A stretch of 64,000 bases of DNA, taken from positions 28,794-92,793 of the forward strand of contig JAVCCM010000101.1 of assembly GCA_030765455.1 (NCBI GenBank), read 5' to 3'. Position 1 is the stretch's first letter. The number at the start of each line of letters is the position of its first letter. Shown piece after piece: positions 13,562 to 59,023 of this stretch. A model generated the notes under the pieces. It did no database searches. It worked only from the letters and a program-made list of their open reading frames with translations, and was not told where the DNA came from. Origin of the DNA: Candidatus Electryonea clarkiae. GTDB lineage: Bacteria > Electryoneota > Electryoneia > Electryoneales > Electryoneaceae. Made by a program: the position numbers and the translations under genes.

Positions 13562-14116
13562 TCAATCAGGAACTTTATTCATATCAACAAGACCGTCAGG
13601 CAATATTACCTTAATCAATTTTGTTTTAATATCAACAGATTTTACAAATTCTTTGACAGCCGGTATCATCACTACGCCATGTTTTCCTTTGACAAGCCAG
13701 ATATCCTGGGCTGACTGGTCTAAGATTTCCTCGATTATTCCTATATTGCCATGAATTTCGCATTCTACCTTACACCCGACAAGATCATCTATGAAATACA
13801 TAGATTCAGGCAATTCATCCCGCTCAGTTACATCGACGAAAAGTTCGCCACCGATCAGGGGTTCAGCAAGCTCGCGTGTCGGACATTCATGCAACCGGAG
13901 ATAAGCCATGCCCCCTTCTGTCCGGCTTCTTTTGATTGCAAAGTATTTTAAATCTCCGCCTTCAAGCTGAATCCAAATTCCCTCCAGGAATTGAAATCTA
14001 TCCAGACTCCATGTCCAGGGAAGAATCTTCAGATCACCTCTTAATCCTCTGGTCTTGACAATCTTGCCCAGATATACCCGCCGGTCTGACGGGGGGGGTG
14101 TTCTATCAGCGTTCAA
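13562..14116 (-). CDS. rimM: 16S rRNA processing protein RimM
   Basis: LGKIVKTRGLRGDLKI...PRC-barrel C-terminus. Position between rpsP and trmD is canonical. Confidence 0.9.
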   Translation of the reverse strand: MNADRTPPPSDRRVYLGKIVKTRGLRGDLKILPWTWSLDRFQFLEGIWIQLEGGDLKYFAIKRSRTEGGMAYLRLHECPTRELAEPLIGGELFVDVTERDELPESMYFIDDLVGCKVECEIHGNIGIIEEILDQSAQDIWLVKGKHGVVMIPAVKEFVKSVDIKTKLIKVILPDGLVDMNKVPD

Positions 14117-14967
14117 GCCTTATCCGTTGAAGCGTCCTTCTTCTCCTTGTCTTCGGTCTTTTTCTTCTCTGCCGGTTTAGCAGTATCAGATTTTTCAGCT
14201 TTTTTCTTTGGAGAAGCTTTCTTTTCTGTTTTTTCCTTTGGCTTTTCCTCTGGTTCCGGAGCGGCTTCTTTTTTCTCGTCAACCTTTTTTGCGCTTTTCG
14301 CCTTTGGTTCAGCTTTTGGCTTTTCTTCAGTTTTTTTGGCTTCCGGTTCTTTTTCGACTGTCTTTTCAGCTTTTACTTCAGGCTTGTCCTTGTCGCTGGT
14401 TTCCTGCTTCTTCGCGGCTTTTTTCTTTTCCTTCTCAACCGGTACCTCTGCGACTTTTTCTTCTACCTTTGCTTCGACAGCTTTTTCCGCTTTTTTATCT
14501 TCTTTCTTTTCTATTTTTTCAGCGGGTTTTTCAGCCTTGGCGGGTTTCGCTTTTGCCTTTGGTTTCTTTTCTTTTTCCGGCTCCTCTTCAGGTGCTTTGA
14601 ATTCCGGAACCTCAGGTTTAGCCGGTTTTTCTTTGTTCAGAACGCCATAATGTTTCTCCTGGAGTTCCTTTACCGCTGCTTCGATTTTTTCAGCGTCATA
14701 TCCGCGTTTTGTCATATCCCAGCGAAGCATAACGCCTTCCCGCCTGAACAAACTTTTGACTGAATCAGAAGGCAAAGCGCCTCGATTGAGCCATTTCAAG
14801 GCGATTTCATGATCGACACTTACTTCACTCGGACGTGGTATCGGATCATAAAGACCAATTTTCTCTATATATGCTCCATCTCTTTTCTTGCGGCTGTCAA
14901 CCGCTACGATGCGATAATACGGACGTTTTTTCCGTCCCATACGTGAAAGCCTGATTTTTACTGCCAC
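14113..14967 (-). CDS. rpsP: 30S ribosomal protein S16 with a ~190 aa low-complexity K/E/A/P-rich C-terminal extension
   Basis: VAVKIRLSRMGRKKRPYYRIVAVDSRKKRDG matches the S16 N-terminus. GTG at 14967 with GGAG about 10 nt upstream is preferred over the upstream extension that would overlap ffh. The tail is KPAKAEKPAEKIEKKEDKK... Confidence 0.88.
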   Translation of the reverse strand: MAVKIRLSRMGRKKRPYYRIVAVDSRKKRDGAYIEKIGLYDPIPRPSEVSVDHEIALKWLNRGALPSDSVKSLFRREGVMLRWDMTKRGYDAEKIEAAVKELQEKHYGVLNKEKPAKPEVPEFKAPEEEPEKEKKPKAKAKPAKAEKPAEKIEKKEDKKAEKAVEAKVEEKVAEVPVEKEKKKAAKKQETSDKDKPEVKAEKTVEKEPEAKKTEEKPKAEPKAKSAKKVDEKKEAAPEPEEKPKEKTEKKASPKKKAEKSDTAKPAEKKKTEDKEKKDASTDKA

Positions 14968-14986
14968 TTGGTTTTTCTCCTTTAAT

Positions 14987-16312
14987 CTATCCGGGCATAG
15001 GACCAAAGCCAAAGGGTAAGCCTTTGCCTCCTTTGCCCATCCTTTTCATCATTTTTTTCATCTGTAAAAACTGGTTGAGCAGGCGGTTTACGTCCTGAAC
15101 TGATAATCCGCATCCTCTCGCAATACGTTTGCGCCTGCTGCCGTTAATAATTTGTGGTCGCCGGCGTTCATCGGGAGTCATTGAGAGAATAATCGCTTCA
15201 ACGTGTTTCATTTCGCTGGGATCTACCTCAACGCCCTTAAGTGCTTTGCTTGCTCCCGGTATCATTTGTAAGAGACCTTCCAAAGGTCCCATCTTATTGA
15301 TCTGGCGAAGTTGATCCAGAAAATCCTCAAGGTCGAACTGCGCCTTTTTGAATTTTATGGCGAGTTTTTCCGCCTCTTCAATATCTATTACTTCCTGAGC
15401 CTTCTCAACTAAAGATACTACATCACCCAGACCAAGGATACGGTTAGCCTGTCGGGCGGGATGAAATTCATCCAGATCTTCAAGTTTTTCACCGACTCCG
15501 ATAAAACGTATCGGTTGACCGGTAACCTCACGGATGCTAAGTGCTGCGCCTCCACGCGCGTCACCGTCCATTTTGGTCAGAATTATACCCGAAATGCCAA
15601 GTTGTTCGTTAAATGCTCTGGCTGAATTGACAGCATCCTGTCCGGTCATTCCGTCAGCAACGAATATAGTCTCAGCGGGTCGTAATTCCTCCTTTAGTTC
15701 AATTAACTCTGCCATCAGGGCATCGTCAACATGTAAACGCCCTGCAGTATCAACAATCAGGGTGTCAAGCCCGGTTAACTTTGCTTCCAGTTTTGCTTCC
15801 CTTGCAACAGTTAGCGGGGTTGAGCCCTGTTTTGCAATTACTTTAATTCCAGCTTGCTGGCCTAAAATTTCCAGTTGATCAACGGCAGCAGGACGTTGCA
15901 AGTCACACGCTGCCAACAAAGGTCGCATTCCATGTTTCTTCAGATAAACGCCGAGCTTGCCAACCGAAGTTGTCTTTCCGGCTCCTTGAAGACCTACCAT
16001 CAAATATACTGAAGGCGCCTCCTTGCTGCGCCGTAATTGAGACCAATTCCCACCGAGCAGCTCTACGAGTTCATCATGAATTATTTTTATCACCTGCTGC
16101 GACGGAGTGATGGATTTTAATACCTCTTCTCCGATGGCGCGAGTTTCAACTCTTTTGAGAAAGTCGCGGGCAACTTTAAAGTTAACGTCTGCTTCAAGCA
16201 AAATGCGACGTACTTCACGAAGCGCTGCCTTTACATCACTTTCTGTAAGCTTGCCTCGTCCGCGAAGTTTCTTAAAAAAGCCGTCGAGCTTATCTGTCAG
16301 TTCATTAAACAT
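14987..16312 (-). CDS. ffh: Signal recognition particle protein Ffh
   Basis: GLQGAGKTT, DTAGR, TKMDGDARGGAA and an M-domain with a Met-rich C-terminus. Confidence 0.95.
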   Translation of the reverse strand: MFNELTDKLDGFFKKLRGRGKLTESDVKAALREVRRILLEADVNFKVARDFLKRVETRAIGEEVLKSITPSQQVIKIIHDELVELLGGNWSQLRRSKEAPSVYLMVGLQGAGKTTSVGKLGVYLKKHGMRPLLAACDLQRPAAVDQLEILGQQAGIKVIAKQGSTPLTVAREAKLEAKLTGLDTLIVDTAGRLHVDDALMAELIELKEELRPAETIFVADGMTGQDAVNSARAFNEQLGISGIILTKMDGDARGGAALSIREVTGQPIRFIGVGEKLEDLDEFHPARQANRILGLGDVVSLVEKAQEVIDIEEAEKLAIKFKKAQFDLEDFLDQLRQINKMGPLEGLLQMIPGASKALKGVEVDPSEMKHVEAIILSMTPDERRRPQIINGSRRKRIARGCGLSVQDVNRLLNQFLQMKKMMKRMGKGGKGLPFGFGPMPG

Positions 16313-30004: not shown

Positions 30005-31078
30005 ATGGCTTCAAGAAAAGTCGGAGTACTAACTGGAGATAGTGTCCAGGAAGTGTTTGCGATTGCCAAGGAAAATGATTTTGCATTACCCGCAGTGAAC
30101 GTGGTAGGAACAAATACTATCAACGGCGCTATGGAAACCGCCCGTGAAGCAAACTCACCGATCATAATTCAACTTTCAAGCAGCGGAGCACATTTTTATG
30201 CGGGCAAGGGATTGTCCAATGATGGTCACCAGGCGATGATAGCCGGGGCTGTCTCAGCGGCAAAACATGTTCACCTGCTGGCGGAAATGTACGGGATACC
30301 GGTTATTATGCATACCGATCATGCTGCCCGGAAACTGCTGCCCTGGGTTGACGGAATGATTACAGCGAGCGAAGAGCATTATGAACAATTCGGTTATCCC
30401 CTTTTCAGCTCTCATATGATAGACCTCTCAGCAGAACCGATTGAAGACAACATTAATGAATGCCTGATTCGCCATGAGCGTATGAGCAAAATTGGCATGA
30501 CACTCGAAATCGAACTCGGTGTCACCGGCGGGGAAGAGGACGGCGTGGATAACACAGGTATTGATTCTTCAAAACTCTATACTCAACCTGAAGATGTTTG
30601 TTACGCATACGAGGAACTCGGAAAAATCAGCGACAGGTTCACTATTGCAGCTTCATTCGGAAACGTTCATGGTGTATATAAACCGGGAAATGTCCAACTT
30701 CAACCTGTCATCCTGAAAAACTGCCAGGAGTATATTGAGAAGAAACATGGCACCGGTCATAATCCTGCAAGTTTCGTTTTCCACGGTGGCTCCGGATCTT
30801 CTCAAGAGCAAATTCGTGAAGCAATCAGCTACGGCGCTATCAAGATGAACATAGACACCGACCAGCAATGGGCTTTCTCAATTGGTGCCAGGGATTATTT
30901 CAACGAGTACAGTGAGTACCTTAAAACCCAGATCGGCAACCCGGATGGTGATGACAAGCCGAATAAGAAGTATTATGATCCCAGGAAATGGCTGAGAAAA
31001 GCTGAAGAAACTTTCATAACAAGACTACGAGAAGCATTCGAAGATCTGAACGATATCAACAGAACTCCGCTTCTGTAA
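30005..31078 (+). CDS. fbaA: Class II fructose-bisphosphate aldolase
   Basis: AAAGGAG RBS. Class II FBA motifs: PAVNVVGTNTINGAMETAREANSPIIIQLSSSGAHF, HTDHAARKLLPWVDGMI and ELGVTGGEEDGVDN. Confidence 0.95.
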   Translation: MASRKVGVLTGDSVQEVFAIAKENDFALPAVNVVGTNTINGAMETAREANSPIIIQLSSSGAHFYAGKGLSNDGHQAMIAGAVSAAKHVHLLAEMYGIPVIMHTDHAARKLLPWVDGMITASEEHYEQFGYPLFSSHMIDLSAEPIEDNINECLIRHERMSKIGMTLEIELGVTGGEEDGVDNTGIDSSKLYTQPEDVCYAYEELGKISDRFTIAASFGNVHGVYKPGNVQLQPVILKNCQEYIEKKHGTGHNPASFVFHGGSGSSQEQIREAISYGAIKMNIDTDQQWAFSIGARDYFNEYSEYLKTQIGNPDGDDKPNKKYYDPRKWLRKAEETFITRLREAFEDLNDINRTPLL

Positions 31079-31166
31079 TTGTTAAAATCTTATATAATAT
31101 GTTTACAGTATTTATAATCCCGGGATACTTCTCGGATAACAACACACCAACGAAGGAGAAACAGGA

Positions 31167-31370
31167 ATGAGGATCACGATACAATTTGAGGTGAGCAAGG
31201 GATCTCATAGTTATGACCTTTCGGAAGATGACTTAAATCAGATATGTTCTGAAGGAAGGGTTTATATTGAACAGCAGGACCCAGAAAAAAGTTTGAGTAT
31301 TGGGGGAACTCCAGATGAACTTGAACTCCTTGCGGAAGCCTTAATGAATTGTGCAAATTCGAATCGTTAA
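31167..31370 (+). CDS. Small hypothetical protein (67 aa)
   Basis: RBS AAGGAGAAAC. No family recognised. Confidence 0.4.
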   Translation: MRITIQFEVSKGSHSYDLSEDDLNQICSEGRVYIEQQDPEKSLSIGGTPDELELLAEALMNCANSNR

Positions 31371-31797
31371 TCTGACTGATTGAAATTCAGCAGAAAGAAA
31401 AATACATTGGACCAACTCACATTTAATGCTGTGTTATTACTCGACTTGATCGAGTATTCCTTTGCTCTAACTTGTTGATAATGGTATATGCACGGGTCAT
31501 ACCTGAGAATGGCAAAACAGCTAGAGGCATGTGATCTGATCCACAATTTTTACAGTAATTTCGAGTAGATCGTTGTAAAATACGGATAGCTATGCCCACA
31601 TTTGAATAAATTGCTTATTTTCAAGGAGATTGTCAATAATTACTTGAAAATGCTATATCAGAAGATAGAAATATTATAGTCGAATTTTAAGCTTCATATA
31701 TTCTAAAGACAGTATAACCATTAAAATTCTTATAATAGTTTGTTTGTATTGTAAGATTTTGAACCTGAGTCAAAGATTGTTATTTTGGGATAATTTT

Positions 31798-33093
31798 ATG
31801 TCCATTTCAACAAAACATCAAATTGTTAACGGTGATAGCAGAAACATGTCAGAATTGGCTGACAATTCTGTAAATTTAATTATTACATCTCCTCCATATT
31901 GGCAACTGAAAGATTATGGGAATGATGAACAGATAGGCTATAATGATAGTTATGAAAATTATATAAACAATCTGAATTTAGTTTGGCAGGAAAGTTATCG
32001 AGTTTTAGATAACGGTTGCAGATTATGCATAAACATAGGTGATCAATTTGCACGAGCTGTTTATTATGGCAGATATAAAGTAATACCAATAAGAACAGAA
32101 ATCATAAAGTTCTGTGAAACTATTGGTTTAGATTATATGGGAGCAATAATATGGCAAAAAAGAACCACGACTAACACAACCGGTGGCGCAAGTGTGATGG
32201 GTAGTTTTCCATTTCCACGGAATGGGATTTTGTCAATTGATTATGAATTTATATTACTGTTTAAGAAACTCGGAAACCCCAAAAAACCAGATAAAGAATT
32301 AAAAGAGCAATCGAGACTCACGAAAGAGGAATGGAGGGAATATTTTTCGGGACATTGGTATTTTGGTGGTGTTAAGCAAGATGGTCATATGGCAATGTTT
32401 CCGGAAGAATTACCGCGACGATTAATTAAAATGTTCTCTTTTGTTGGTGATACTATTCTTGATCCATTTTTAGGTAGTGGCACAACATCCTTAGCTGCTA
32501 AAAACCTGGACAGAAATTCTGCTGGATATGAAATAAATTCTGAATTTATACCTTACATCAAGAAGAAATTGAATTTTGAACAACAGGATTTATTGCAGAC
32601 AGAGTATCAGTTTTTCACTCAAGAGAATGAAGATCATAGATTTGATGCAAGAATCAGTAATTTGCCATACATTTTTAAAGATACACATAAATTAGACAAA
32701 AAAATTGATCCTAAAAATCTACAATTTGGATCTAAAATTGACAAGAACTCTAATCAAAGAGAAGAATATTATAGTGTTAAAGATATTATTTCTACCGAGA
32801 ATTTTATGCTCAACAATGGACTTAGAATTCGATTATTAGGCATTAAAAGCAATGAAACACAAGATGGAAATGCAAGGGATTTTTTATTAAAGAAACTGAA
32901 AAATCAAAAAGTGTTTTTGAAATTTGATAAACTCAAACATGATTCCGAGAATAATCTATTCTGTTATTTATACCTGAAAAATAAGACTTTTATAAATGCT
33001 CACTTGATAAAAAATGGTTATGCAAAAGCAGACAGGGATATTGAATTCAAGTATAAAAATAAATTTATTGGATTGGAACAACATCATGGATAA
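31798..33093 (+). CDS. Beta-class DNA methyltransferase (SPPY motif: N4-cytosine or N6-adenine) with a C-terminal degenerate staphylococcal-nuclease-like domain
   Basis: Motif IV NLIITSPPY precedes motif I DTILDPFLGSGTT. Residues 300-432 align to the SNase fold (LRIRLLGIKSNE, ARDFLLKKLKNQKVFLKFDK, NLFCYLYLKNKTFINAHLIKNGYAKA) but lack the catalytic Asp and Arg residues. Start set at ATG 31798. Confidence 0.85.
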   Translation: MSISTKHQIVNGDSRNMSELADNSVNLIITSPPYWQLKDYGNDEQIGYNDSYENYINNLNLVWQESYRVLDNGCRLCINIGDQFARAVYYGRYKVIPIRTEIIKFCETIGLDYMGAIIWQKRTTTNTTGGASVMGSFPFPRNGILSIDYEFILLFKKLGNPKKPDKELKEQSRLTKEEWREYFSGHWYFGGVKQDGHMAMFPEELPRRLIKMFSFVGDTILDPFLGSGTTSLAAKNLDRNSAGYEINSEFIPYIKKKLNFEQQDLLQTEYQFFTQENEDHRFDARISNLPYIFKDTHKLDKKIDPKNLQFGSKIDKNSNQREEYYSVKDIISTENFMLNNGLRIRLLGIKSNETQDGNARDFLLKKLKNQKVFLKFDKLKHDSENNLFCYLYLKNKTFINAHLIKNGYAKADRDIEFKYKNKFIGLEQHHG

Positions 33094-33790
33094 GGAATGG
33101 ATCAAGGGAAACGAAGGTCGCAATCTCAAATTTAAGAGAGAAACCCTGTTAAATTATGGAATGAACAGATGGGGTTTGAATAAAGCTCACAGCGTAGGTT
33201 CTACATCTGAATTAATAAGAGCATGCACTCCTAGTTCTTTTGAAGATTGGGAAGGATTCTATTTTAAAAATGCCAGGCAAAAGAAAAAAGATGGCATTAA
33301 TATAACAAAGGAATACATAACAGGTTTAGGACAAACTCTATATATAAAATTGTCAGAAGTTATTCAGAATGAATTAGAATCAATACAAGAGGAAGAATGT
33401 ATTGACTATGCATACAACCTAATTCTAAACCGGACTTATGAAGGTTATAGAGCTGAAATTGATACTATCTACGGCCAATTAGAAGGCATTCTGAAAATAA
33501 AAATTGATCCAGCACCTGATAAATGGGATAGAACTTATAATGTTGATTTTTGCATTGAAGTAAAAGATCGGTTTATTGGAATACAAATTAAACCGATATC
33601 GACAGGAATTCCTTTAGACCATTATCAATGGGAAGAAATGCATCGTAAAAATCATGAAAGATTCTTTCATGATCAAGGTGGAAAAGTATTTTTCGTATTC
33701 TCTGTCAAATCAACTGGTAAAAAGAAAATAATTCATAATGTTGAAGTAATTGATGAGATTCAAAAAGAAATAGATAGATTGAGTAAATAA
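33086..33790 (+). CDS. Probable type II restriction endonuclease (PD-(D/E)xK)
   Basis: Start overlaps the MTase stop (ATGGATAA). Putative catalytic YNVDFCIEVKDRF (D...E-x-K). AT-rich, low-GC context. Confidence 0.55.
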   Translation: MDKEWIKGNEGRNLKFKRETLLNYGMNRWGLNKAHSVGSTSELIRACTPSSFEDWEGFYFKNARQKKKDGINITKEYITGLGQTLYIKLSEVIQNELESIQEEECIDYAYNLILNRTYEGYRAEIDTIYGQLEGILKIKIDPAPDKWDRTYNVDFCIEVKDRFIGIQIKPISTGIPLDHYQWEEMHRKNHERFFHDQGGKVFFVFSVKSTGKKKIIHNVEVIDEIQKEIDRLSK

Positions 33791-33794
33791 TTTG

Positions 33795-34058
33795 ATGAGT
33801 TCAGAAGCGCCTGGAATGAATATTTCAGAAGTTGAGGTAACAAATATTTCTGCTCATGGCATATGGGTGCTTGTGAGTGGTAAAGAATATTTCATGTCCT
33901 ACAAAGATTTTCCCTGGTTTGAAGAAGCGCCGGTGGGGAAAATAATTAATGTTGTTGAATTGTCTTCGGGTCATCTCTATTGGCGAGAGCTTGATATCGA
34001 TCTGAGTCTTGAGTCGATTAAACATCCGGAACGTTTTCCATTAATAACAAAGCTATAG
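33795..34058 (+). CDS. DUF2442-family small protein
   Basis: HGIWVLVSGKEYFMSYKDFPWFEEAPVGKIINVVELSSGHLYWRELDIDLSLESIKHPERFPL matches the DUF2442 consensus. No DUF4160 partner present. Confidence 0.6.
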   Translation: MSSEAPGMNISEVEVTNISAHGIWVLVSGKEYFMSYKDFPWFEEAPVGKIINVVELSSGHLYWRELDIDLSLESIKHPERFPLITKL

Positions 34059-34156
34059 AATAAGAATACGATAAGTACAGTTTGTACATTATTCAGAATG
34101 TGCAGGATTTATCGAAATCCTTATTTTACAACAGTCTCAGTTTAATACATAGATTC

Positions 34157-36634
34157 TTAATATCTCGCTGTAAGTGTTACAAAATAATTCCGCTCCGCTC
34201 CGACGAAATAGAAATTCTCCCCTTCCCAGGAATCGTACCAGCCTGCTGTTTCGTATTCTTCATCGAGCAGGTTGTTTGCCCTGAATTTGATTTCCCATCC
34301 ACTCAAAGGAATATTTTCAGGAACTTTATATGACATACTCAAACCAAGAAGCGAGAAAGGATCAATTGTACGATCTTCATCCTCAGTATTATCGAGGTAT
34401 TGTTTGCCGACGTAACGCAAATTGATTCCAGGGACAAAACCCATCCAATAATAACTTACCCCGCCATGGAGCATGATACTTGGGAATAATGCGATATGAT
34501 TATCGGACAGATCGATTGTTTCAGTACCTATTGGATTCCAGTCATCATCATATAGTTGGTTATAGGTTAAATACTCAGTCAACCTGTCGTCTGAAATGGA
34601 AGCATTCAACCAAGCCTTGGTTTCACGTATAGGCTTCACAACCGCTTCGAATTCCAAGCCGCGATGAACCGATCTGTCAGCATTATCTTTAACCGGGGCA
34701 CCATCATTTACACCACCGTATGGAATAATCGCATTCTTATATTCCATCCAGTATGCGCCAAGCTTGAATTTGTACCAGTCAGCTTTGAACGATGTACCCA
34801 GCTCGAAATCAATTAATTGTTCAGGTTCTACAATCGGGCCAGACCATTCAATTCTTTCAACCTGACCCCCAGATCTGATCGTGTCCGGTGTATTAAATAG
34901 TGGATCTTTTCCCAGATCATCCGGACCTTGCCAAACATCCCAGTATTCATCGTTATACGGCGCACGATGCGTTAATCCAACACCTCCGAAAAGATTCAAT
35001 TCATTTGTCATATCGTAAGATAATCCGAATTTTGGATTTAGAAATGTGTAATTGATATTAAAAGCATTCAATTCCTCGTTCTGGAAATTTGCCATTGGAG
35101 TTTGCTTAAAAGAATATGTTTTGTGCCTGAACTCAAGGTCACCTATCAACCTCGTTTTGTCATTGAGACGATATAGATCATGAACGAACAATCCTGCCTG
35201 ACTAACCTGTCCGTTATAAGCATAATACTGATGCTGAGGCTCAGCTCCAGGTGGTAGTTGATCACCCCAGATCACATACCCGAAATGATCTCCCTGGTAC
35301 CACTGTAGATCACCGCCGACTTGAAGAGTATTCTTCTCCTGTTCCCAGATCAGTCTCGGAACCCAGCCCACATGATTTTTCTTCACCCATTTCTGGTTGA
35401 CCAAGTCTGTTTCTGTGATAGTGTCGGTAGGTGTATAAAACTCCTGGTAACCAAAATCCTCCAGGTCTTCACCTGATTTATACTGTTCGTAATATCCCTC
35501 GCCCCTGATATAAAACAGGCTGTTTTCGATCTGGATATTCGGATTCAGGGTGTAGCTGTGATGGAGTTCGTAATGAGGTTGATAGAAATTGTCAATTGTG
35601 TTTTCATAAGTATAAGGATTGTGTTTTCTGTTTTTGTTTATATCACTTTCTGCTGAAGCGTTCCAGGCAGCATGCGTTAATTCTGGTCCACCATAAACAT
35701 TTATCGTAAGTTTACTTCTCTGCCAGTATCTCGTTGCAGTCAGGAAATAACTCCATAACTCCACACCGCTCCTGTCACGATATCCGTCTGTCTGGATTCG
35801 GGAAAATCTGCCGTACATCCCATAGGTGTTGTTAATTAATCCTGAATTATATGCAAGTCCCCATTTCCTGGTATTAAAACTTCCTCCTCCAAAAGTTGCT
35901 TCAAGCTGAGGTTCCGCCAATTGCGGCGACAATGTAAGAAGGTTGATTGTCCCACCAAATCCTCCGGTGCCATACGGTGAGTAACCTACTCCACGCTGCA
36001 CCTGGGCATCCTCCAAATTAGCAGCGAGGTCTGGCATATCGACCCAGTAAACCTGTCCATCTTCGGGATCGTTGAGCGGAATATTATTTATTGTAACAGC
36101 AATACGGGTCTGATCGAATCCCCTGATCTTTACATTGGAATAGCCAATCCCATTACCGGCATCCGAATATGAATAAACCCCGGGAATAGATTCGAGCAAC
36201 ATCGGGATATCCTGTGCCCAATATGTTTCTCTCATTTGAATGCCAGACATATTTGAAAATGATGCAGGAGCTATTCCTTCAACTGCACGGCTTGCTGTAA
36301 TCACAACATCATCGGTGGAAATCAGGGCATGGGATAGCGAAAGTACAAAATCGGATATGTCACTCACCAGATTAACATTAATTTTATTAACATGATATCC
36401 AAGAAAACTCGCTGAAATTTTATAATTACCGGGATTGATACCATGGAAACTGAAAATACCGTTCTGATCTGTCACAGTACCTGTTCCGGTTCCTTCAATG
36501 ATAACATGAGCGCCTCTCAATGGTTTACCGGATGTTTTATCCCTGACCTCACCGGCGATGTCAAAAGCATAGGAAGAAATGACAAAGAATAAACACAAGA
36601 AGAGATAAAACAACAAAATTACGGTACGTTTCAT
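34157..36634 (-). CDS. TonB-dependent outer membrane receptor (CarboxypepD_reg + plug + barrel), probably for thiamine or a thiamine precursor
   Basis: Signal peptide MKRTVILLFYLFLCLFF. TonB box region. 825 aa barrel. TPP riboswitch in the 5' leader. Start ATG 36634 with a GAGGG RBS. Confidence 0.9.
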   Translation of the reverse strand: MKRTVILLFYLFLCLFFVISSYAFDIAGEVRDKTSGKPLRGAHVIIEGTGTGTVTDQNGIFSFHGINPGNYKISASFLGYHVNKINVNLVSDISDFVLSLSHALISTDDVVITASRAVEGIAPASFSNMSGIQMRETYWAQDIPMLLESIPGVYSYSDAGNGIGYSNVKIRGFDQTRIAVTINNIPLNDPEDGQVYWVDMPDLAANLEDAQVQRGVGYSPYGTGGFGGTINLLTLSPQLAEPQLEATFGGGSFNTRKWGLAYNSGLINNTYGMYGRFSRIQTDGYRDRSGVELWSYFLTATRYWQRSKLTINVYGGPELTHAAWNASAESDINKNRKHNPYTYENTIDNFYQPHYELHHSYTLNPNIQIENSLFYIRGEGYYEQYKSGEDLEDFGYQEFYTPTDTITETDLVNQKWVKKNHVGWVPRLIWEQEKNTLQVGGDLQWYQGDHFGYVIWGDQLPPGAEPQHQYYAYNGQVSQAGLFVHDLYRLNDKTRLIGDLEFRHKTYSFKQTPMANFQNEELNAFNINYTFLNPKFGLSYDMTNELNLFGGVGLTHRAPYNDEYWDVWQGPDDLGKDPLFNTPDTIRSGGQVERIEWSGPIVEPEQLIDFELGTSFKADWYKFKLGAYWMEYKNAIIPYGGVNDGAPVKDNADRSVHRGLEFEAVVKPIRETKAWLNASISDDRLTEYLTYNQLYDDDWNPIGTETIDLSDNHIALFPSIMLHGGVSYYWMGFVPGINLRYVGKQYLDNTEDEDRTIDPFSLLGLSMSYKVPENIPLSGWEIKFRANNLLDEEYETAGWYDSWEGENFYFVGAERNYFVTLTARY

Positions 36635-36690
36635 GTTACCCTCGAAAACCATGACCAATTTGAAAGTCGGGGGGTGAATAAACGGAAATA

Positions 36691-36709
36691 CCCGCCGGGG
36701 AGAGCGGGC
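36691..36709 (-). terminator. Putative expression-platform terminator hairpin of the TPP riboswitch (GCCCGCUCUCCCCGGCGGG followed by a U-rich tract)
   Basis: Hairpin plus UAUUUCCGUUUAUU on the minus strand, between the aptamer and the start codon. Confidence 0.35.
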
Positions 36710-36742
36710 AGAAAGGAGATAATCATGCAAAAGGAATAAATC

Positions 36743-36830
36743 GCCCTGTTTCCTACGCCAGCATTAACCGGATCAGGTTCCACGGGTGTATTCTCAGACT
36801 CGTCGTCGAGACGAACCACCCCGAAGCAGC
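36743..36830 (-). promoter_or_regulatory. TPP (THI-box) riboswitch aptamer
   Basis: Minus-strand RNA reads CUUCGGGGUGG...CUGAGAAUACACCCGUGGAACCUGAUCCGGUUAAUGCUGGCGUAGGAAACAGG. This matches the THI-box consensus (GGGGUG, CUGAGA, ACCC, GAACCUGAUC-GG-UAAUGCC/UGGCGUAGGGAA). Confidence 0.8.
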
Positions 36831-37072
36831 AATTTCAAGATAGATAAATTATACAAGAGGGTCAAGCAGGCGCAGAAATAATTGAGATGCATGATTATTT
36901 TGCATTAATGACAAGTAGGTAGATTGGTTAACGTTGTTCAAAAGTTACCTGGGATTGAATTTATGATGGCAAAAAATCTCTCAAGGATTGACATTATGTT
37001 GTTTAAAAGCTCCAGCGGAGCGAAATCATGTAGCACGGTGCGTAAGCGCCGGGAGGTGAAGTAATAATTATT

Positions 37073-55677: not shown

Positions 55678-58371
55678 ATGGCAGAAGCTACGAAAACAAA
55701 AGAAGACGTTTGGGTCCCGACATGTTGCGGACAGTGTTATTGCATGTGCGGTGTAAAGGTCCGGCGGCAGGACGGAATAGTCACACAAGTCGAGGGAAAT
55801 CCTGATGCGCCTACCGGGCGCGGCTCGATCTGTGCAAAGGGTCTCGCCTCCCCCCACCTCCTTTACGATCCATACCGTGTGAACTATCCACTCAAGCGTA
55901 CTAACCCTGAAAAAGGTCTTGGTGTTGATCCCAAGTTTGAGCGTATCTCCTGGGATGAGGCGTATGATATTATTATCAAGAAACTGAAAGAATGCCAGGA
56001 ACGCGATCCGCGGGGTCTATTCTTCCAGGCAACCACGACCCAGGCATCGGAGATCCGGTTCGGAGTAATCGGGTTCATGAAAGCCTTTGGCACACCCAAT
56101 TACTGGGTATCAGGCGGTGGGCTGCATTGCGGTAATGGCGCCCACTTTATGAACGGAATCATGCATGTATCCTGGTCTATCATTCCTGATTTCGCCAACT
56201 GCAACTACGCTCTGAATTTTGGCTGCTCCAAGGGACATGGCGCGGGTCATGCGGCAATACAAAATGCCACCCAGGTGGCTGACGCCCGTTTCAGGGGCTT
56301 CAAGAACGTAGTCTTTGATCCCTTTATGAGCGCTCAAGCCTCAAAGGGTCACGAGTGGGTTCCCATCCGTGTTGGTACCGATGGCGCCCTTGCCCTGGGG
56401 CTGGTCAATTCCCTGATAAATGAGCACGGTATCTACGATGCCGAATATCTCATGTACAAGACCAATTCTCCTTACCTGATCCGTCCCTCCGACGGGCGGT
56501 ACATGCGTGACAAGGAAACAAATAATCCCCTGGTGTGGGACCTGGTTGACAACAAACCCAGGGTACATAACGATCCATTGGTAACACGTGTCGAGTATGA
56601 GGACGAGGCTCATGAAGTAGCACTTACCGGCACATACAATGTGGACGGTATTGACTGCAAGCCCTCTTTCGAGCTGCTCAAGGAGCATGTAAAGACATAC
56701 ACCCCAGAGTATGTAGAAAAGATTACCTGGGTACCTGCCGCCACAGTAAGCAGGATTGCTAAAGAGTTCGGTGAAGCGGCAGAGATTGGTTCTACCGTAA
56801 CTATTGAGACAGAAAATGGTCCCAAGAAGATTCCCAAGCGACCCGTAGCCACTCATTTCTTCCGTGGTTCCCAGGGTCACGCCAACTCGGGATGGACCTG
56901 CCTGTCAATCGACATGGTGAACCACATCGTTGGCGCAGCCGACACTTACGGCAGCGCACTGGGGCTGGGTGGAACGGTAATGGACGGTTACAAGAAGACC
57001 GGTAAGCCATACCAGATTCCTTACCCCTGCCCGGATGGTCTGCTCACGGCAAAAGCATGGGTATATGATCACACGCCATATCCGTTGCGTGAGCCCAAAC
57101 CTCCTACGCGGCTTGATTTGCACGACATGTTCCCAACATCAATTTACAACGCATTTACTATATGCAGTCCCAAATGGTTTGATATGCTCGAACGGTTCAA
57201 GATCCCGTACCGTCCGGACGTGATGGTCAATTTCGGCTCAAACTCGGTGATGACTATGGGTAACGCTGAGACAGTAACCGAGAATTTCCTTAAGAAGTTC
57301 AAATTCATCTTCTCGTTCCAACTCTATATAACAGAGTTCGAAGAAGCTGTTGCGGACATCGTACTACCTGATGCCTGCTTCCTCGAACGCTTTACACCGG
57401 CGGTCAGTTTCCCCTCCACCTTCTCTCATCCCCAGGGCGAGGACGACTGGGGTTGGACAATCCGGCAGCCTGTGGTGGAACCATTGTACGAACGAAGGGA
57501 TTTCAACAAGGTGATGATTGAAATCAGCAAGCGTTGCGGCATCCTTGGCAAGTATTACAAGGGGCTTAACGATGCTATCCCCATTCGTTACGGTGGTGAA
57601 ATGGAAGAGAAGTACAAACTCACAGAGGACGGCAGCGTTGAGCACTCATGGGAGGATGTCTGCGACCGTCTTGTAAAGGATCGGTTCGGGGAGGAGCATG
57701 ACCTGGAGTACTTCAAGAAACGGGGCGTTTTCACATGGCCCAAGCGTAAAGAAGACGTTTACTGGAAATGGTTTAATCCATCTCGCGTACCGGTTTATTT
57801 CGAGTATTTCATTGATTCAGGGGAAAAGATAACGAAATTATGGAATGAATACGGCGGCAACGATTTCTTCAATTTTGATTGGTCGCGGTTCAAAGCGCTT
57901 GCCGACTGGTTTCCCTGCCCCACTCACGGCGATGACAAGCCCGAGTACGACATGAATACCTTCTACTGGCGTGCCGTGATGCACTGCAACTCGCTGACTC
58001 AGCAGAATCCTTACCTGGATGAATGCGCCCAGGAGGACCCCTATGTCTATGCGATTCAGATGCACAAGGACACTGCTGCGGAAAAAGGCATCGAGGATGG
58101 GGACTACGTCTGGCTTGAAAACCCGGAGGGGCATCGTGTGAAGGGTTGGGTTGCGCTGTGCGAAGGTATTGAACCTCATCACCTCGCTATCGCAGCGGTA
58201 GCGGGACATTGGGGTAAGCACATGCCTATTGCAAAAGGTAAGGGCATATTTTTCAATGATCTCGTTGAAATGGATCTGGAACATACCGATCCTTTGACAT
58301 TCAACCAGGATATCTGTTGCCGTGTCAAGATTTATAAGGCTGACAAGGCTGACGCTGAGCGGCAGGAATAG
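55678..58371 (+). CDS. Molybdopterin (bis-MGD) oxidoreductase catalytic subunit, CISM family, with no Tat signal
   Basis: N-terminal FS0 cluster motif TCCGQCYCMCG...GSICAKG. 897 aa. Partnered with 4Fe-4S and NrfD subunits and FdhD. No RRxFLK motif. Confidence 0.9.
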   Translation: MAEATKTKEDVWVPTCCGQCYCMCGVKVRRQDGIVTQVEGNPDAPTGRGSICAKGLASPHLLYDPYRVNYPLKRTNPEKGLGVDPKFERISWDEAYDIIIKKLKECQERDPRGLFFQATTTQASEIRFGVIGFMKAFGTPNYWVSGGGLHCGNGAHFMNGIMHVSWSIIPDFANCNYALNFGCSKGHGAGHAAIQNATQVADARFRGFKNVVFDPFMSAQASKGHEWVPIRVGTDGALALGLVNSLINEHGIYDAEYLMYKTNSPYLIRPSDGRYMRDKETNNPLVWDLVDNKPRVHNDPLVTRVEYEDEAHEVALTGTYNVDGIDCKPSFELLKEHVKTYTPEYVEKITWVPAATVSRIAKEFGEAAEIGSTVTIETENGPKKIPKRPVATHFFRGSQGHANSGWTCLSIDMVNHIVGAADTYGSALGLGGTVMDGYKKTGKPYQIPYPCPDGLLTAKAWVYDHTPYPLREPKPPTRLDLHDMFPTSIYNAFTICSPKWFDMLERFKIPYRPDVMVNFGSNSVMTMGNAETVTENFLKKFKFIFSFQLYITEFEEAVADIVLPDACFLERFTPAVSFPSTFSHPQGEDDWGWTIRQPVVEPLYERRDFNKVMIEISKRCGILGKYYKGLNDAIPIRYGGEMEEKYKLTEDGSVEHSWEDVCDRLVKDRFGEEHDLEYFKKRGVFTWPKRKEDVYWKWFNPSRVPVYFEYFIDSGEKITKLWNEYGGNDFFNFDWSRFKALADWFPCPTHGDDKPEYDMNTFYWRAVMHCNSLTQQNPYLDECAQEDPYVYAIQMHKDTAAEKGIEDGDYVWLENPEGHRVKGWVALCEGIEPHHLAIAAVAGHWGKHMPIAKGKGIFFNDLVEMDLEHTDPLTFNQDICCRVKIYKADKADAERQE

Positions 58372-58396
58372 TCTAAGAGGAACTGGAGTTATTTAA

Positions 58397-59023
58397 ATGC
58401 CACAATACGGAATGGTTATCGACCTCAAAAGGTGTTACGGTTGTTACGCCTGTGTCATGGCTTGCAAGGTGAAAAACCACACACCACCCAGCGTTTTCTG
58501 GGCACGCCTTCTGAAAGGCGAACGGGGCAAGTTCCCCAACACAATGCGGCAGGCTCTTCCTGTCTTGTGCATGCACTGTGACGAACCCTCCTGTCTGGAG
58601 GTATGTCCCACGGGTGCAACACAGCAGTTGGACAATGGCATCGTGATCGTGGATAAGGACAAATGCATGGGATGTAAAGCCTGTATTATGGCTTGTCCCT
58701 ATGGCGCCAGGTATTCAGTGGAAAAATGGGAGAGCTATTTTCCTGATGGACTTCCACTCTCTGAATATGAGGAGTTTGCGAAGAAACACTGGGATGATAA
58801 TTCCGGCTGTGGCGTTGCTACAAAGTGCGATTTTTGTCTCGACCTGCTCAATGAAGGCAAACTACCGGCATGCGTGGAAGCCTGCGCTGCCAATGCCCGG
58901 ACATTTGGCGACCTCGATGACCCGGACAGCGAGATATCCGTGTTGATCAGGAAATACAGGGGAGAGGTGCTGAATCCTGAATTAGGTAATAAACCAAAGG
59001 TCTATTACCTCGCCCCGAGGTAA
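58397..59023 (+). CDS. 4Fe-4S ferredoxin-type electron-transfer subunit (PsrB/NrfC/DmsB-like)
   Basis: Four Cys clusters (CYGCYACVMACK, CMHCDEPSCLEVCP, CMGCKACIMACP, CDFCLDLLNEGKLPACVEAC). Confidence 0.9.
   Translation: MPQYGMVIDLKRCYGCYACVMACKVKNHTPPSVFWARLLKGERGKFPNTMRQALPVLCMHCDEPSCLEVCPTGATQQLDNGIVIVDKDKCMGCKACIMACPYGARYSVEKWESYFPDGLPLSEYEEFAKKHWDDNSGCGVATKCDFCLDLLNEGKLPACVEACAANARTFGDLDDPDSEISVLIRKYRGEVLNPELGNKPKVYYLAPR

Follow-up and report, generated by a model that had tools for sequence, protein, structure and literature searches.

Gene content and base composition of the AT-rich stretch

The window analysed here comprises 64,000 nucleotides (nt) of contig JAVCCM010000101.1 (assembly GCA_030765455.1, positions 28,794 to 92,793) from Candidatus Electryonea clarkiae, which was assembled from Ace Lake, Antarctica (PMC9324843). 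We scrutinized an AT-rich stretch of this window that carries three genes, all on the plus strand: a DNA methyltransferase gene, whose product ends in a domain resembling staphylococcal nuclease (SNase), an endonuclease gene, and a lone DUF2442 gene (Table 1). All positions are those of the window. Candidatus Electryonea clarkiae proteins identical to the first two products are present in public databases under the NCBI names 'DNA methyltransferase' and 'MjaI family restriction endonuclease' (the latter P0121). For this genome, the locus is thus a routine type II restriction-modification annotation.

The G+C content (GC) was 0.337, 0.315, and 0.331 in the 1-kb bins across 31001-34000, against 0.38-0.53 in the remaining bins. 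The 2.7-kb segment of lowest GC began at 31501 and had a value of 0.319, about 3.7 standard deviations below the window mean (0.431, standard deviation 0.030). The GC at third codon positions was 0.25 in the methyltransferase gene and 0.23 in the endonuclease gene, compared with 0.41-0.46 in the flanking fba, Omp85-like, and TonB-receptor genes. The methyltransferase open reading frame (ORF) extends from 31744 to 33093, with a likely start at the ATG at 31798, which gives a product of the same length as its relatives. For the endonuclease, the start that agrees with its family is the ATG at 33086, ahead of the methyltransferase TAA at 33091-33093. A preliminary description of this DNA, made from its letters, had reported both a drop in base composition relative to the flanks and an 8-nt overlap of the two genes, and these measurements and coordinates agree with it on both counts.

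Table 1. Features in and around the AT-rich stretch (amino acids, aa)
Feature	Position	Strand	Basis or remark
Conserved mobile cassette of methyltransferase and endonuclease genes	31788..33791	+	Within the AT-rich stretch, blastn matches to related loci fall here only
Beta-class DNA methyltransferase, 431 aa, predicted N4-cytosine/CTAG	31798..33093 (including stop)	+	Pfam, PADLOC, 2zie, M.MthZI
Catalytic methyltransferase domain, residues 1-262	31798..32583	+	Alignment to 2zie, residues 7-257
Linker, residues 263-322	32584..32763	+	Strongly conserved block at residues 289-316
SNase-fold (OB-fold) domain, residues 323-431, degenerate catalytic site	32764..33090	+	Pfam SNase, Foldseek
MjaI-family type II restriction endonuclease, 234 aa	33086..33790	+	Pfam RE_MjaI, PADLOC REase_II
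Solitary DUF2442 gene, 87 aa	33795..34058	+	Pfam DUF2442; 4 nt past the endonuclease stop
AT-rich non-coding spacer, GC 0.311	31371..31797		No credible ORF; 5' of the methyltransferase gene
orf67, ORF of 67 aa	31167..31370	+	Between fba and the cassette; Shine-Dalgarno AAGGAG

The methyltransferase is a beta-class enzyme with an extended C-terminus

The methyltransferase matched the Pfam profile N6_N4_Mtase (PF01555) over its full extent (1-221), with an E-value of 4.6e-42 and 144.9 bits against a cut-off of 26.7. Motif IV, SPPY, lies at residues 31-34, ahead of DPFLGSG at 222-228, which contains the FxGxG of motif I (224-228). This is the beta-class order that had been read from the sequence at the outset, and both SPPY and DPFxGSG are invariant across 198 relatives. 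Enzymes that methylate N4-cytosine typically have motif IV in this SPPY form. Among solved structures, the closest to the core was PDB 2zie (TTHA0409, E 2.1e-51). The catalytic domain shows a mean identity of 81% to 197 relatives; the protein has the full family length and retains each family-invariant residue. Among more distant proteins, it is 34% identical to M.MthZI of pFZ1 (residues 3-259, E 4e-40) and 39% identical to uncharacterised plasmid methyltransferases of Helicobacter suis. The PADLOC model MTase_II (PDLC03259, 423 positions) spans residues 5-424, including the SNase-like part, at 2.4e-178. A curated defence library therefore already covers the fusion from end to end.

The partner gene encodes an MjaI-family endonuclease

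The downstream product matched Pfam RE_MjaI (PF09568) at 6.8e-35 and 120.8 bits (cut-off 22.7) and PADLOC REase_II at 3e-32. BLASTP against the endonuclease of the MthZI system of pFZ1 gave 24% identity over 178 columns (E 2e-07). The preliminary description was right to see an endonuclease gene here; the protein that it left as an anonymous PD-(D/E)xK candidate, however, clearly belongs to the MjaI family. The 'D...EVK' motif that it proposed as catalytic did not hold up when we aligned 68 sequences, namely the window's endonuclease, MthZI, and 66 endonucleases of related loci with identities as low as 31%: E158 was present in 2 of the 68 and K160 in 19. Conservation was found at other positions. 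Position 119 is acidic in all 68 (D in 57, E in 11), D154 and K169 are invariant, and E124, D148, and Q167 each occur in 67, MthZI having S in place of Q167.

The conserved constellation D/E119, D154, and Q167-x-K169 is probably a variant site of the PD-(D/E)xK type. In a structural model of the endonuclease (predicted local distance difference test, pLDDT, 76.6), D154 and Q167-x-K169 stand on adjacent strands (155-159 and 162-170), and residue 119 is on the long preceding helix; as modelled, this would be the usual PD-(D/E)xK layout with the second acid supplied from a helix. A Foldseek search with the model gave no match at E <= 0.001, and the weak matches, from which the fold draws its support, were nearly all PD-(D/E)xK nucleases (cap-snatching endonucleases, Hjc, HincII, Can2, and RecE). 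A PD-(D/E)xK fold is likely but unproven on the model.

The two genes form the unit shared among related loci

Relatives of the locus were collected by scanning one genome per species, and details were taken from the best 80 loci, with a metagenomic contig, L082, added for comparisons. At least 586 stretches encode relatives of the fused methyltransferase. The best 80 of them are 67-78% identical to the window's enzyme over its full length and come from Bacteroidota, Ignavibacteriota, Desulfobacterota, Gammaproteobacteria, Campylobacterota, groups of the candidate phyla radiation, Planctomycetota, Spirochaetota, and others. With at least 586 species and an existing full-length PADLOC type II model, the methyltransferase-SNase fusion is not unusual. 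An MjaI-family endonuclease gene follows on the same strand in about 70 of the 80 loci (about 85%), and the methyltransferase is far more conserved across the 80 loci (67-83% identity) than its partner (31-77%). On L082, a pair 80% identical to that of the window, with the same 8-nt overlap, lies between unrelated housekeeping genes.

Comparison at the DNA level delimited the shared unit. With 30900-34400 as a blastn query against 82 loci, homology was limited to 31788-33791, at 72-75% identity (for example in L082 and L014), a span that opens 10 nt ahead of the methyltransferase ATG and closes with the endonuclease stop. The mobile unit is therefore the two genes, and the 'island' envisaged as a single unit in the preliminary description breaks up, since only this part recurs. 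The cassette is AT-rich whatever its host, with a mean GC of 0.33, below that of the flanks in 58 of 66 loci by a mean of 6 points. The claim of a horizontally acquired type II restriction-modification system is supported by this bias, by the low overall and third-position GC in the window, by the occurrence in at least 586 species, and by the confinement of homology to the two genes.

Searches for the vehicle and boundaries of the insertion gave negative results. No tRNA gene was found in the window, and no integrase or transposase among the annotated genes (roughly 23-45 kb). When metagenome contigs were scanned with the fba protein for relatives that lack the insertion, the best relatives were at most 71% identical, and this route did not define the insertion boundaries. 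The 80 loci held no homologues of the Omp85-like, TonB-receptor, orf67, or DUF2442 proteins. Plasmids in PLSDB contained no full fusion; their matches covered the methyltransferase core only, at less than 60% identity.

Some copies of the cassette differ in the partner gene arrangement. The closest relative in a species genome (L001, 5001-6912) has a methyltransferase 78% identical to that of the window followed by an unrelated 171-aa gene, and is an orphan copy of the fused methyltransferase; about 10 of the 80 loci show no endonuclease. One could regard the window's copy, too, as decaying, with a surviving methyltransferase beside an inactive endonuclease, and a CTAG site at 33231 inside the endonuclease gene would suit such a view. 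We attach a very low probability to it: the endonuclease is of full length (234 aa against 233-238 in relatives), has no frameshift, keeps every residue invariant in 32 close and 68 diverse relatives, and retains the 8-nt overlap of translational coupling. In at least 17 of the 80 loci (for example L006:6299-6622), a recurrent ORF of about 107 aa separates the methyltransferase gene from the endonuclease gene. It matched no Pfam family and may be a controller-like regulator; the window has no such ORF and lacks a controller gene.

A degenerate SNase-like domain is fused to the methyltransferase

The C-terminal segment of the methyltransferase matched Pfam SNase (PF00565) at 1e-07 and 32.8 bits (cut-off 21), beginning at the 'IRLLGIK' strand, and NCBIfam NucI at 7.8e-09. 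An AlphaFold model of the last 149 residues, made with 21 aligned relatives, had a mean pLDDT of 80.8; the folded part reached about 90, and the first 40 residues, which belong to the linker and were predicted without the methyltransferase domain, about 55 (52-59). Foldseek placed PDB 3sr1 at the top (E 2.3e-07, target-normalised TM score 0.73, root-mean-square deviation 2.1 A, 21-22% identity), and the best PDB matches were some 300 staphylococcal nuclease entries. The SNase fold that had been suggested for this segment is borne out by this evidence. Other searches gave weaker matches or none. A single-sequence search of the C-terminal 150 aa against the PDB gave no match, profile searches reached SNase at E 0.07-0.15 only and covered the C-terminal half alone, and hhalign against the SNase sequence aligned only residues 56-112.

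The catalytic set of SNase consists of the calcium ligands D21 and D40 with T41, the general base E43, and the phosphate-binding R35 and R87, and we counted the equivalents in 198 non-identical relatives. D40 is replaced by K (K350, 181 of the 198) and is never acidic; R87 is replaced by N (N386, 171); E43 is variable (K in 82, P in 40, E in 18). D21 has become E (E334, 187), the neighbouring D19 is S in 186, and the position of T41 is E in 160 and Ser (residue 351) in the window protein. R35 is kept as R in 163 and K in 31, together 194 (residue 345), and D83 as D in 197 (D382). The set is thus incomplete. The preliminary description had called the domain devoid of the catalytic Asp and Arg residues; this is correct for D40 and R87, but it overstates the loss, since R35 is retained and D21 conservatively replaced. 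In SNase, loss of D40, R87, or E43 each cuts activity by orders of magnitude. Since one calcium-binding Asp, one phosphate-binding Arg, and the general base are missing, we conclude from the residues present that the domain belongs to the SNase family by fold and not by catalytic equipment, and is not a functional thermonuclease.

Two observations qualify this conclusion. A HMMER profile alignment placed the family pattern D-x-x-N-N-L-L-C-Y-L-Y on D83-K-Y-G-R87-G-L-A-Y-I-Y of SNase; the equivalents of D21, R35, D40, and E43, which fall in the N-terminal half, were assigned from the span of the Pfam match and from the secondary-structure register, since the profile and hhalign alignments cover the C-terminal half alone. 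In addition, polar residues of the cleft are conserved (E334, R/K345, K350, mostly E351, D382, and N386), and a non-canonical activity is possible. The domain might then be an active nuclease with an unorthodox site, for example with Lys350 standing in for the calcium ion, which would make the protein a bifunctional modification enzyme and nuclease, and some sources do label family members 'thermonuclease family protein'. We regard this as very unlikely. The domain lacks counterparts of D40, R87, and E43, the window protein has Ser at 351 where the family has Glu, about 85% of loci have a separate endonuclease gene beside that of the methyltransferase, and the host would be endangered by a nuclease joined to its protective enzyme and free of regulation.

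Both the domain and the linker have been maintained. The SNase-like domain is 60% identical across phyla, and the linker block LPYIFKD.H.(F/L)DKKIDPK.LQFGSKID is 81% identical among relatives, which equals the catalytic core; such figures point to clear constraint on both parts. An exhaustive search with the C-terminal 150 residues returned 903 cluster representatives. Seven of ten that were sampled were N6_N4_Mtase fusions or fragments thereof, some of them distant (34-37% identity), and the other three were multi-repeat SNase-type proteins that have no methyltransferase domain. Since the distant relatives are also fused, the fusion is old.

Given an SNase fold with part of the catalytic set missing, a role in DNA binding, as had been proposed for this OB-fold, is the most reasonable one to infer. 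The domain is most likely a non-catalytic DNA-binding module that aids a minimal methyltransferase core. A bolder view is that the linker and the degenerate domain together are a functional innovation that lies behind the wide spread of this bacterial CTAG cassette; we consider it decidedly unlikely. Under it, the extension could act as a nuclease or nickase of a non-canonical, perhaps metal-independent, kind in which Lys350 replaces the calcium ion, it could sense or tether the endonuclease and so set the balance of restriction and modification after transfer to a new host, or it could provide the target recognition that lets the minimal core act on CTAG. Literature searches for an SNase fused to a DNA methyltransferase, or for SNase together with N4-cytosine, returned nothing relevant. 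The linker and degenerate domain make an abundant and clean case of a nuclease fold recruited to a methyltransferase.

CTAG is the probable recognition sequence

Characterised members of PF09568 named in the cited papers all recognise CTAG. MjaI is CTAG-specific and MthZI is its isoschizomer (PMC2615612); C/TAG is cleaved by MthZI, and N4-methylcytosine (m4C) in CTAG is made by M.MjaI (PMC11033074). The membership of the window endonuclease in this family therefore points to CTAG. On the methyltransferase side, the m4C enzymes M.MthZI, M.MjaI, M.BfaI, and HVO_0794 belong to the beta class, carry SPPY, and measure 303-364 aa, and SPPY as an N4-cytosine trait is described in the same work (PMC5867850). 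N4-cytosine and N6-adenine enzymes are inseparable by sequence alone; the SPPY motif and the identity to M.MthZI favour m4C in CTAG, and this is the specificity we infer.

Counts of palindromic tetramers are in line with this assignment. CTAG is the most depleted of the 16 in the window, with 4 occurrences against 59.3 expected from a second-order model (observed/expected ratio, O/E, 0.07). When the flanks of endonuclease-bearing related loci were pooled, CTAG again ranked as the most depleted (O/E 0.29, per-locus median 0.16), and within the related endonuclease genes, where it likewise ranked first, its O/E is 0.10. Such depletion fits CTAG specificity and is no proof of it.

Several points weigh against CTAG or limit what the counts can say for it. 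In many bacteria CTAG is under-represented through causes other than restriction, which makes its depletion weak evidence. The cassette looks recently acquired and therefore cannot itself have caused the depletion in the host. Two of the window's four CTAG sites are inside the AT-rich stretch, at 31521 in the spacer and at 33231 in the endonuclease gene, which fits a recent arrival into a genome already poor in CTAG. PDB matches of the methyltransferase to m4C and N6-methyladenine (m6A) enzymes were similar in E-value. The endonuclease is only 24% identical to MthZI, a distance at which specificity can shift, and we found no methylome or enzymology for Candidatus Electryonea or any member of the fused subfamily.

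From such points one may argue that the cassette, still of the MjaI family, recognises a sequence other than CTAG or methylates N6-adenine, the SNase-fused subfamily having diverged from the archaeal prototypes. The low identity of the endonuclease to MthZI is compatible with this, as are the identity of the methyltransferase to M.MthZI, which is lower than that to the Helicobacter suis plasmid enzymes (34% vs 39%), and the fall to 31% identity among endonucleases within the 80 loci. The shared specificity of the characterised family members, the depletion of CTAG above all other palindromes in the window, in related flanks, and in the endonuclease genes, and the SPPY motif run counter to it, and we judge it unlikely. 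If the CTAG assignment holds, CTAG systems are frequent among bacteria and may be one cause of the known rarity of CTAG; a recent review describes CTAG-specific systems as less frequent in bacteria than in archaea (PMC11033074).

GGCC ranked second in depletion among the palindromic tetramers of the window, with 27 occurrences against 142 expected (O/E 0.19). This hints at a GGCC-specific restriction system in the genome or lineage; none is visible in the annotated part of the window (about 23-45 kb).

Neighbouring genes and other features of the window

The DUF2442 product (Pfam 4.8e-14, better than the curated cut-off) is encoded from an ATG at 33795, between the endonuclease gene upstream and, after a gap of 98 nt, the convergent TonB receptor gene downstream. 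No DUF4160 gene is adjacent, as the preliminary description had noticed, and the locus therefore does not hold the DUF4160-DUF2442 pair, which is putatively toxin-antitoxin-like. The DUF2442 ATG stands 4 nt past the endonuclease stop on the same strand, and co-transcription is therefore likely. With a GC of 0.394, between those of cassette and genome and below the genome mean, and with an imperfect 21-nt inverted repeat (18 of 21 complementary, 31567-31587 and 34117-34137) bracketing all three genes, a single three-gene island might be suspected in which DUF2442 is a functional component such as a regulator or addiction partner. This is most unlikely. DUF2442 followed the cassette in none of the 80 related loci (tblastn), nor in L082, nucleotide homology stops at the endonuclease stop codon, the protein had no match in PADLOC, and about 0.4 repeats of such quality are expected by chance in 3.5 kb (an estimate). 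By these comparisons DUF2442 is a neighbour and not part of the conserved cassette.

The same inverted repeat was considered as a scar of insertion and rejected: in a search for direct or inverted repeats it is the sole, weak flanking one and is compatible with chance, 17 such pairs having been reported in the region.

The spacer upstream of the methyltransferase gene presumably holds the cassette promoter. It showed no Rfam match and no homology to other loci (82 loci, blastn), its promoter-like sites were no more frequent than in shuffled sequence, and its small antisense ORFs belonged to no family. A terminator-like hairpin at 31438-31456 follows orf67. This ORF has a GC of 0.397 and a strong ribosome-binding site; it gave nothing above threshold in Pfam, NCBIfam, or PADLOC and was absent from the 80 related loci. 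The spacer, orf67, and DUF2442 are local neighbours of unclear history.

The surrounding genes of the window are of the housekeeping kind: a sigma factor, an amidohydrolase, phosphofructokinase, the Omp85-like protein, fba, the TonB-dependent receptor, a Y-family polymerase, a C25 peptidase, and PorV. The locus is not a defence island. Directly upstream of the TonB-dependent receptor gene (34157-36730), a thiamine pyrophosphate (TPP) riboswitch was found at 36732-36833 on the minus strand (Rfam RF00059, 58.9 bits, E 5.4e-09), which suggests thiamine-regulated uptake. Two other segments of the window stood out by composition. At about 14100-14960 the plus strand is strongly T-rich (AT skew -0.47 in the bin 14001-15000); judged by eye, this looks like a long, lysine-, glutamate-, and alanine-rich low-complexity tail of a minus-strand gene, possibly that of ribosomal protein S16. 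GC is raised to 0.50-0.53 at 56001-59000 (mean 0.43), where no rRNA or other Rfam family reached the gathering threshold.

Overall reading and proposed mechanism

Taking the evidence together, we consider it likely that the locus is a two-gene, horizontally acquired type II cassette of the MjaI/MthZI kind, inserted between fba and the TonB receptor gene and probably specific for CTAG. We propose that both enzymes are made from a single transcript; the endonuclease gene starts before the methyltransferase gene has ended, and endonuclease synthesis would be translationally coupled through the overlap. The methyltransferase would mark CTAG in the host, probably as N4-methylcytosine, and so protect host DNA, and the endonuclease would cut unmethylated C/TAG in incoming DNA. 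The SNase-like domain would most likely raise the hold of the methyltransferase on DNA, a role comparable to that of the C-terminal domain of CcrM. The fused variant is abundant and already has names in public databases and a model in PADLOC; we found no paper on it.

Comparison with known systems

The closest characterised systems are those of MthZI, on pFZ1 of Methanothermobacter, and MjaI, of Methanocaldococcus jannaschii (MJ0984/MJ0985), both of which act on C/TAG with m4C modification. The window endonuclease falls in the same Pfam family and shares with them the acidic residue at 119, D154, and the x-I-K-P motif, whereas MthZI departs from the window family at Q167. The methyltransferase, like M.MthZI, is a beta-class SPPY enzyme. 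The archaeal CTAG methyltransferases (303-364 aa; PMC5867850), however, do not have the linker and SNase-like domain of the window family, and the genes are convergent on pFZ1 but co-directional and overlapping in the window. The 80-residue C-terminus of M.MthZI was considered as a relative of the linker or SNase-like domain and was rejected, the hhalign probability being 0.8%.

Two other enzymes resemble the methyltransferase in part. TTHA0409 of Thermus thermophilus HB8 (2zie), a putative beta-class methyltransferase, matches the window core in the order of its motifs and in its short target-recognition region; it has 297 aa and, unlike the window protein, no C-terminal domain. CcrM (PDB 6pbd) does have an extra C-terminal domain behind a beta-class N6_N4 methyltransferase domain, and the catalytic domains are related (E 2.2e-08). 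In CcrM the C-terminal domain is needed for DNA binding. The searches made revealed no sequence similarity between it and the SNase-like domain, and CcrM is an orphan m6A enzyme for GANTC. Staphylococcal nuclease (3sr1) has the same fold as the window domain, which retains the equivalents of R35 and D83 and departs from it at D40, R87, D21, and E43; the nuclease is secreted, whereas the window domain is fused to a methyltransferase. By every test run on sequence and model, the window system appears as a member of the MjaI/MthZI kind that differs from its prototypes in gene order, in the linker, and in the SNase-like domain.

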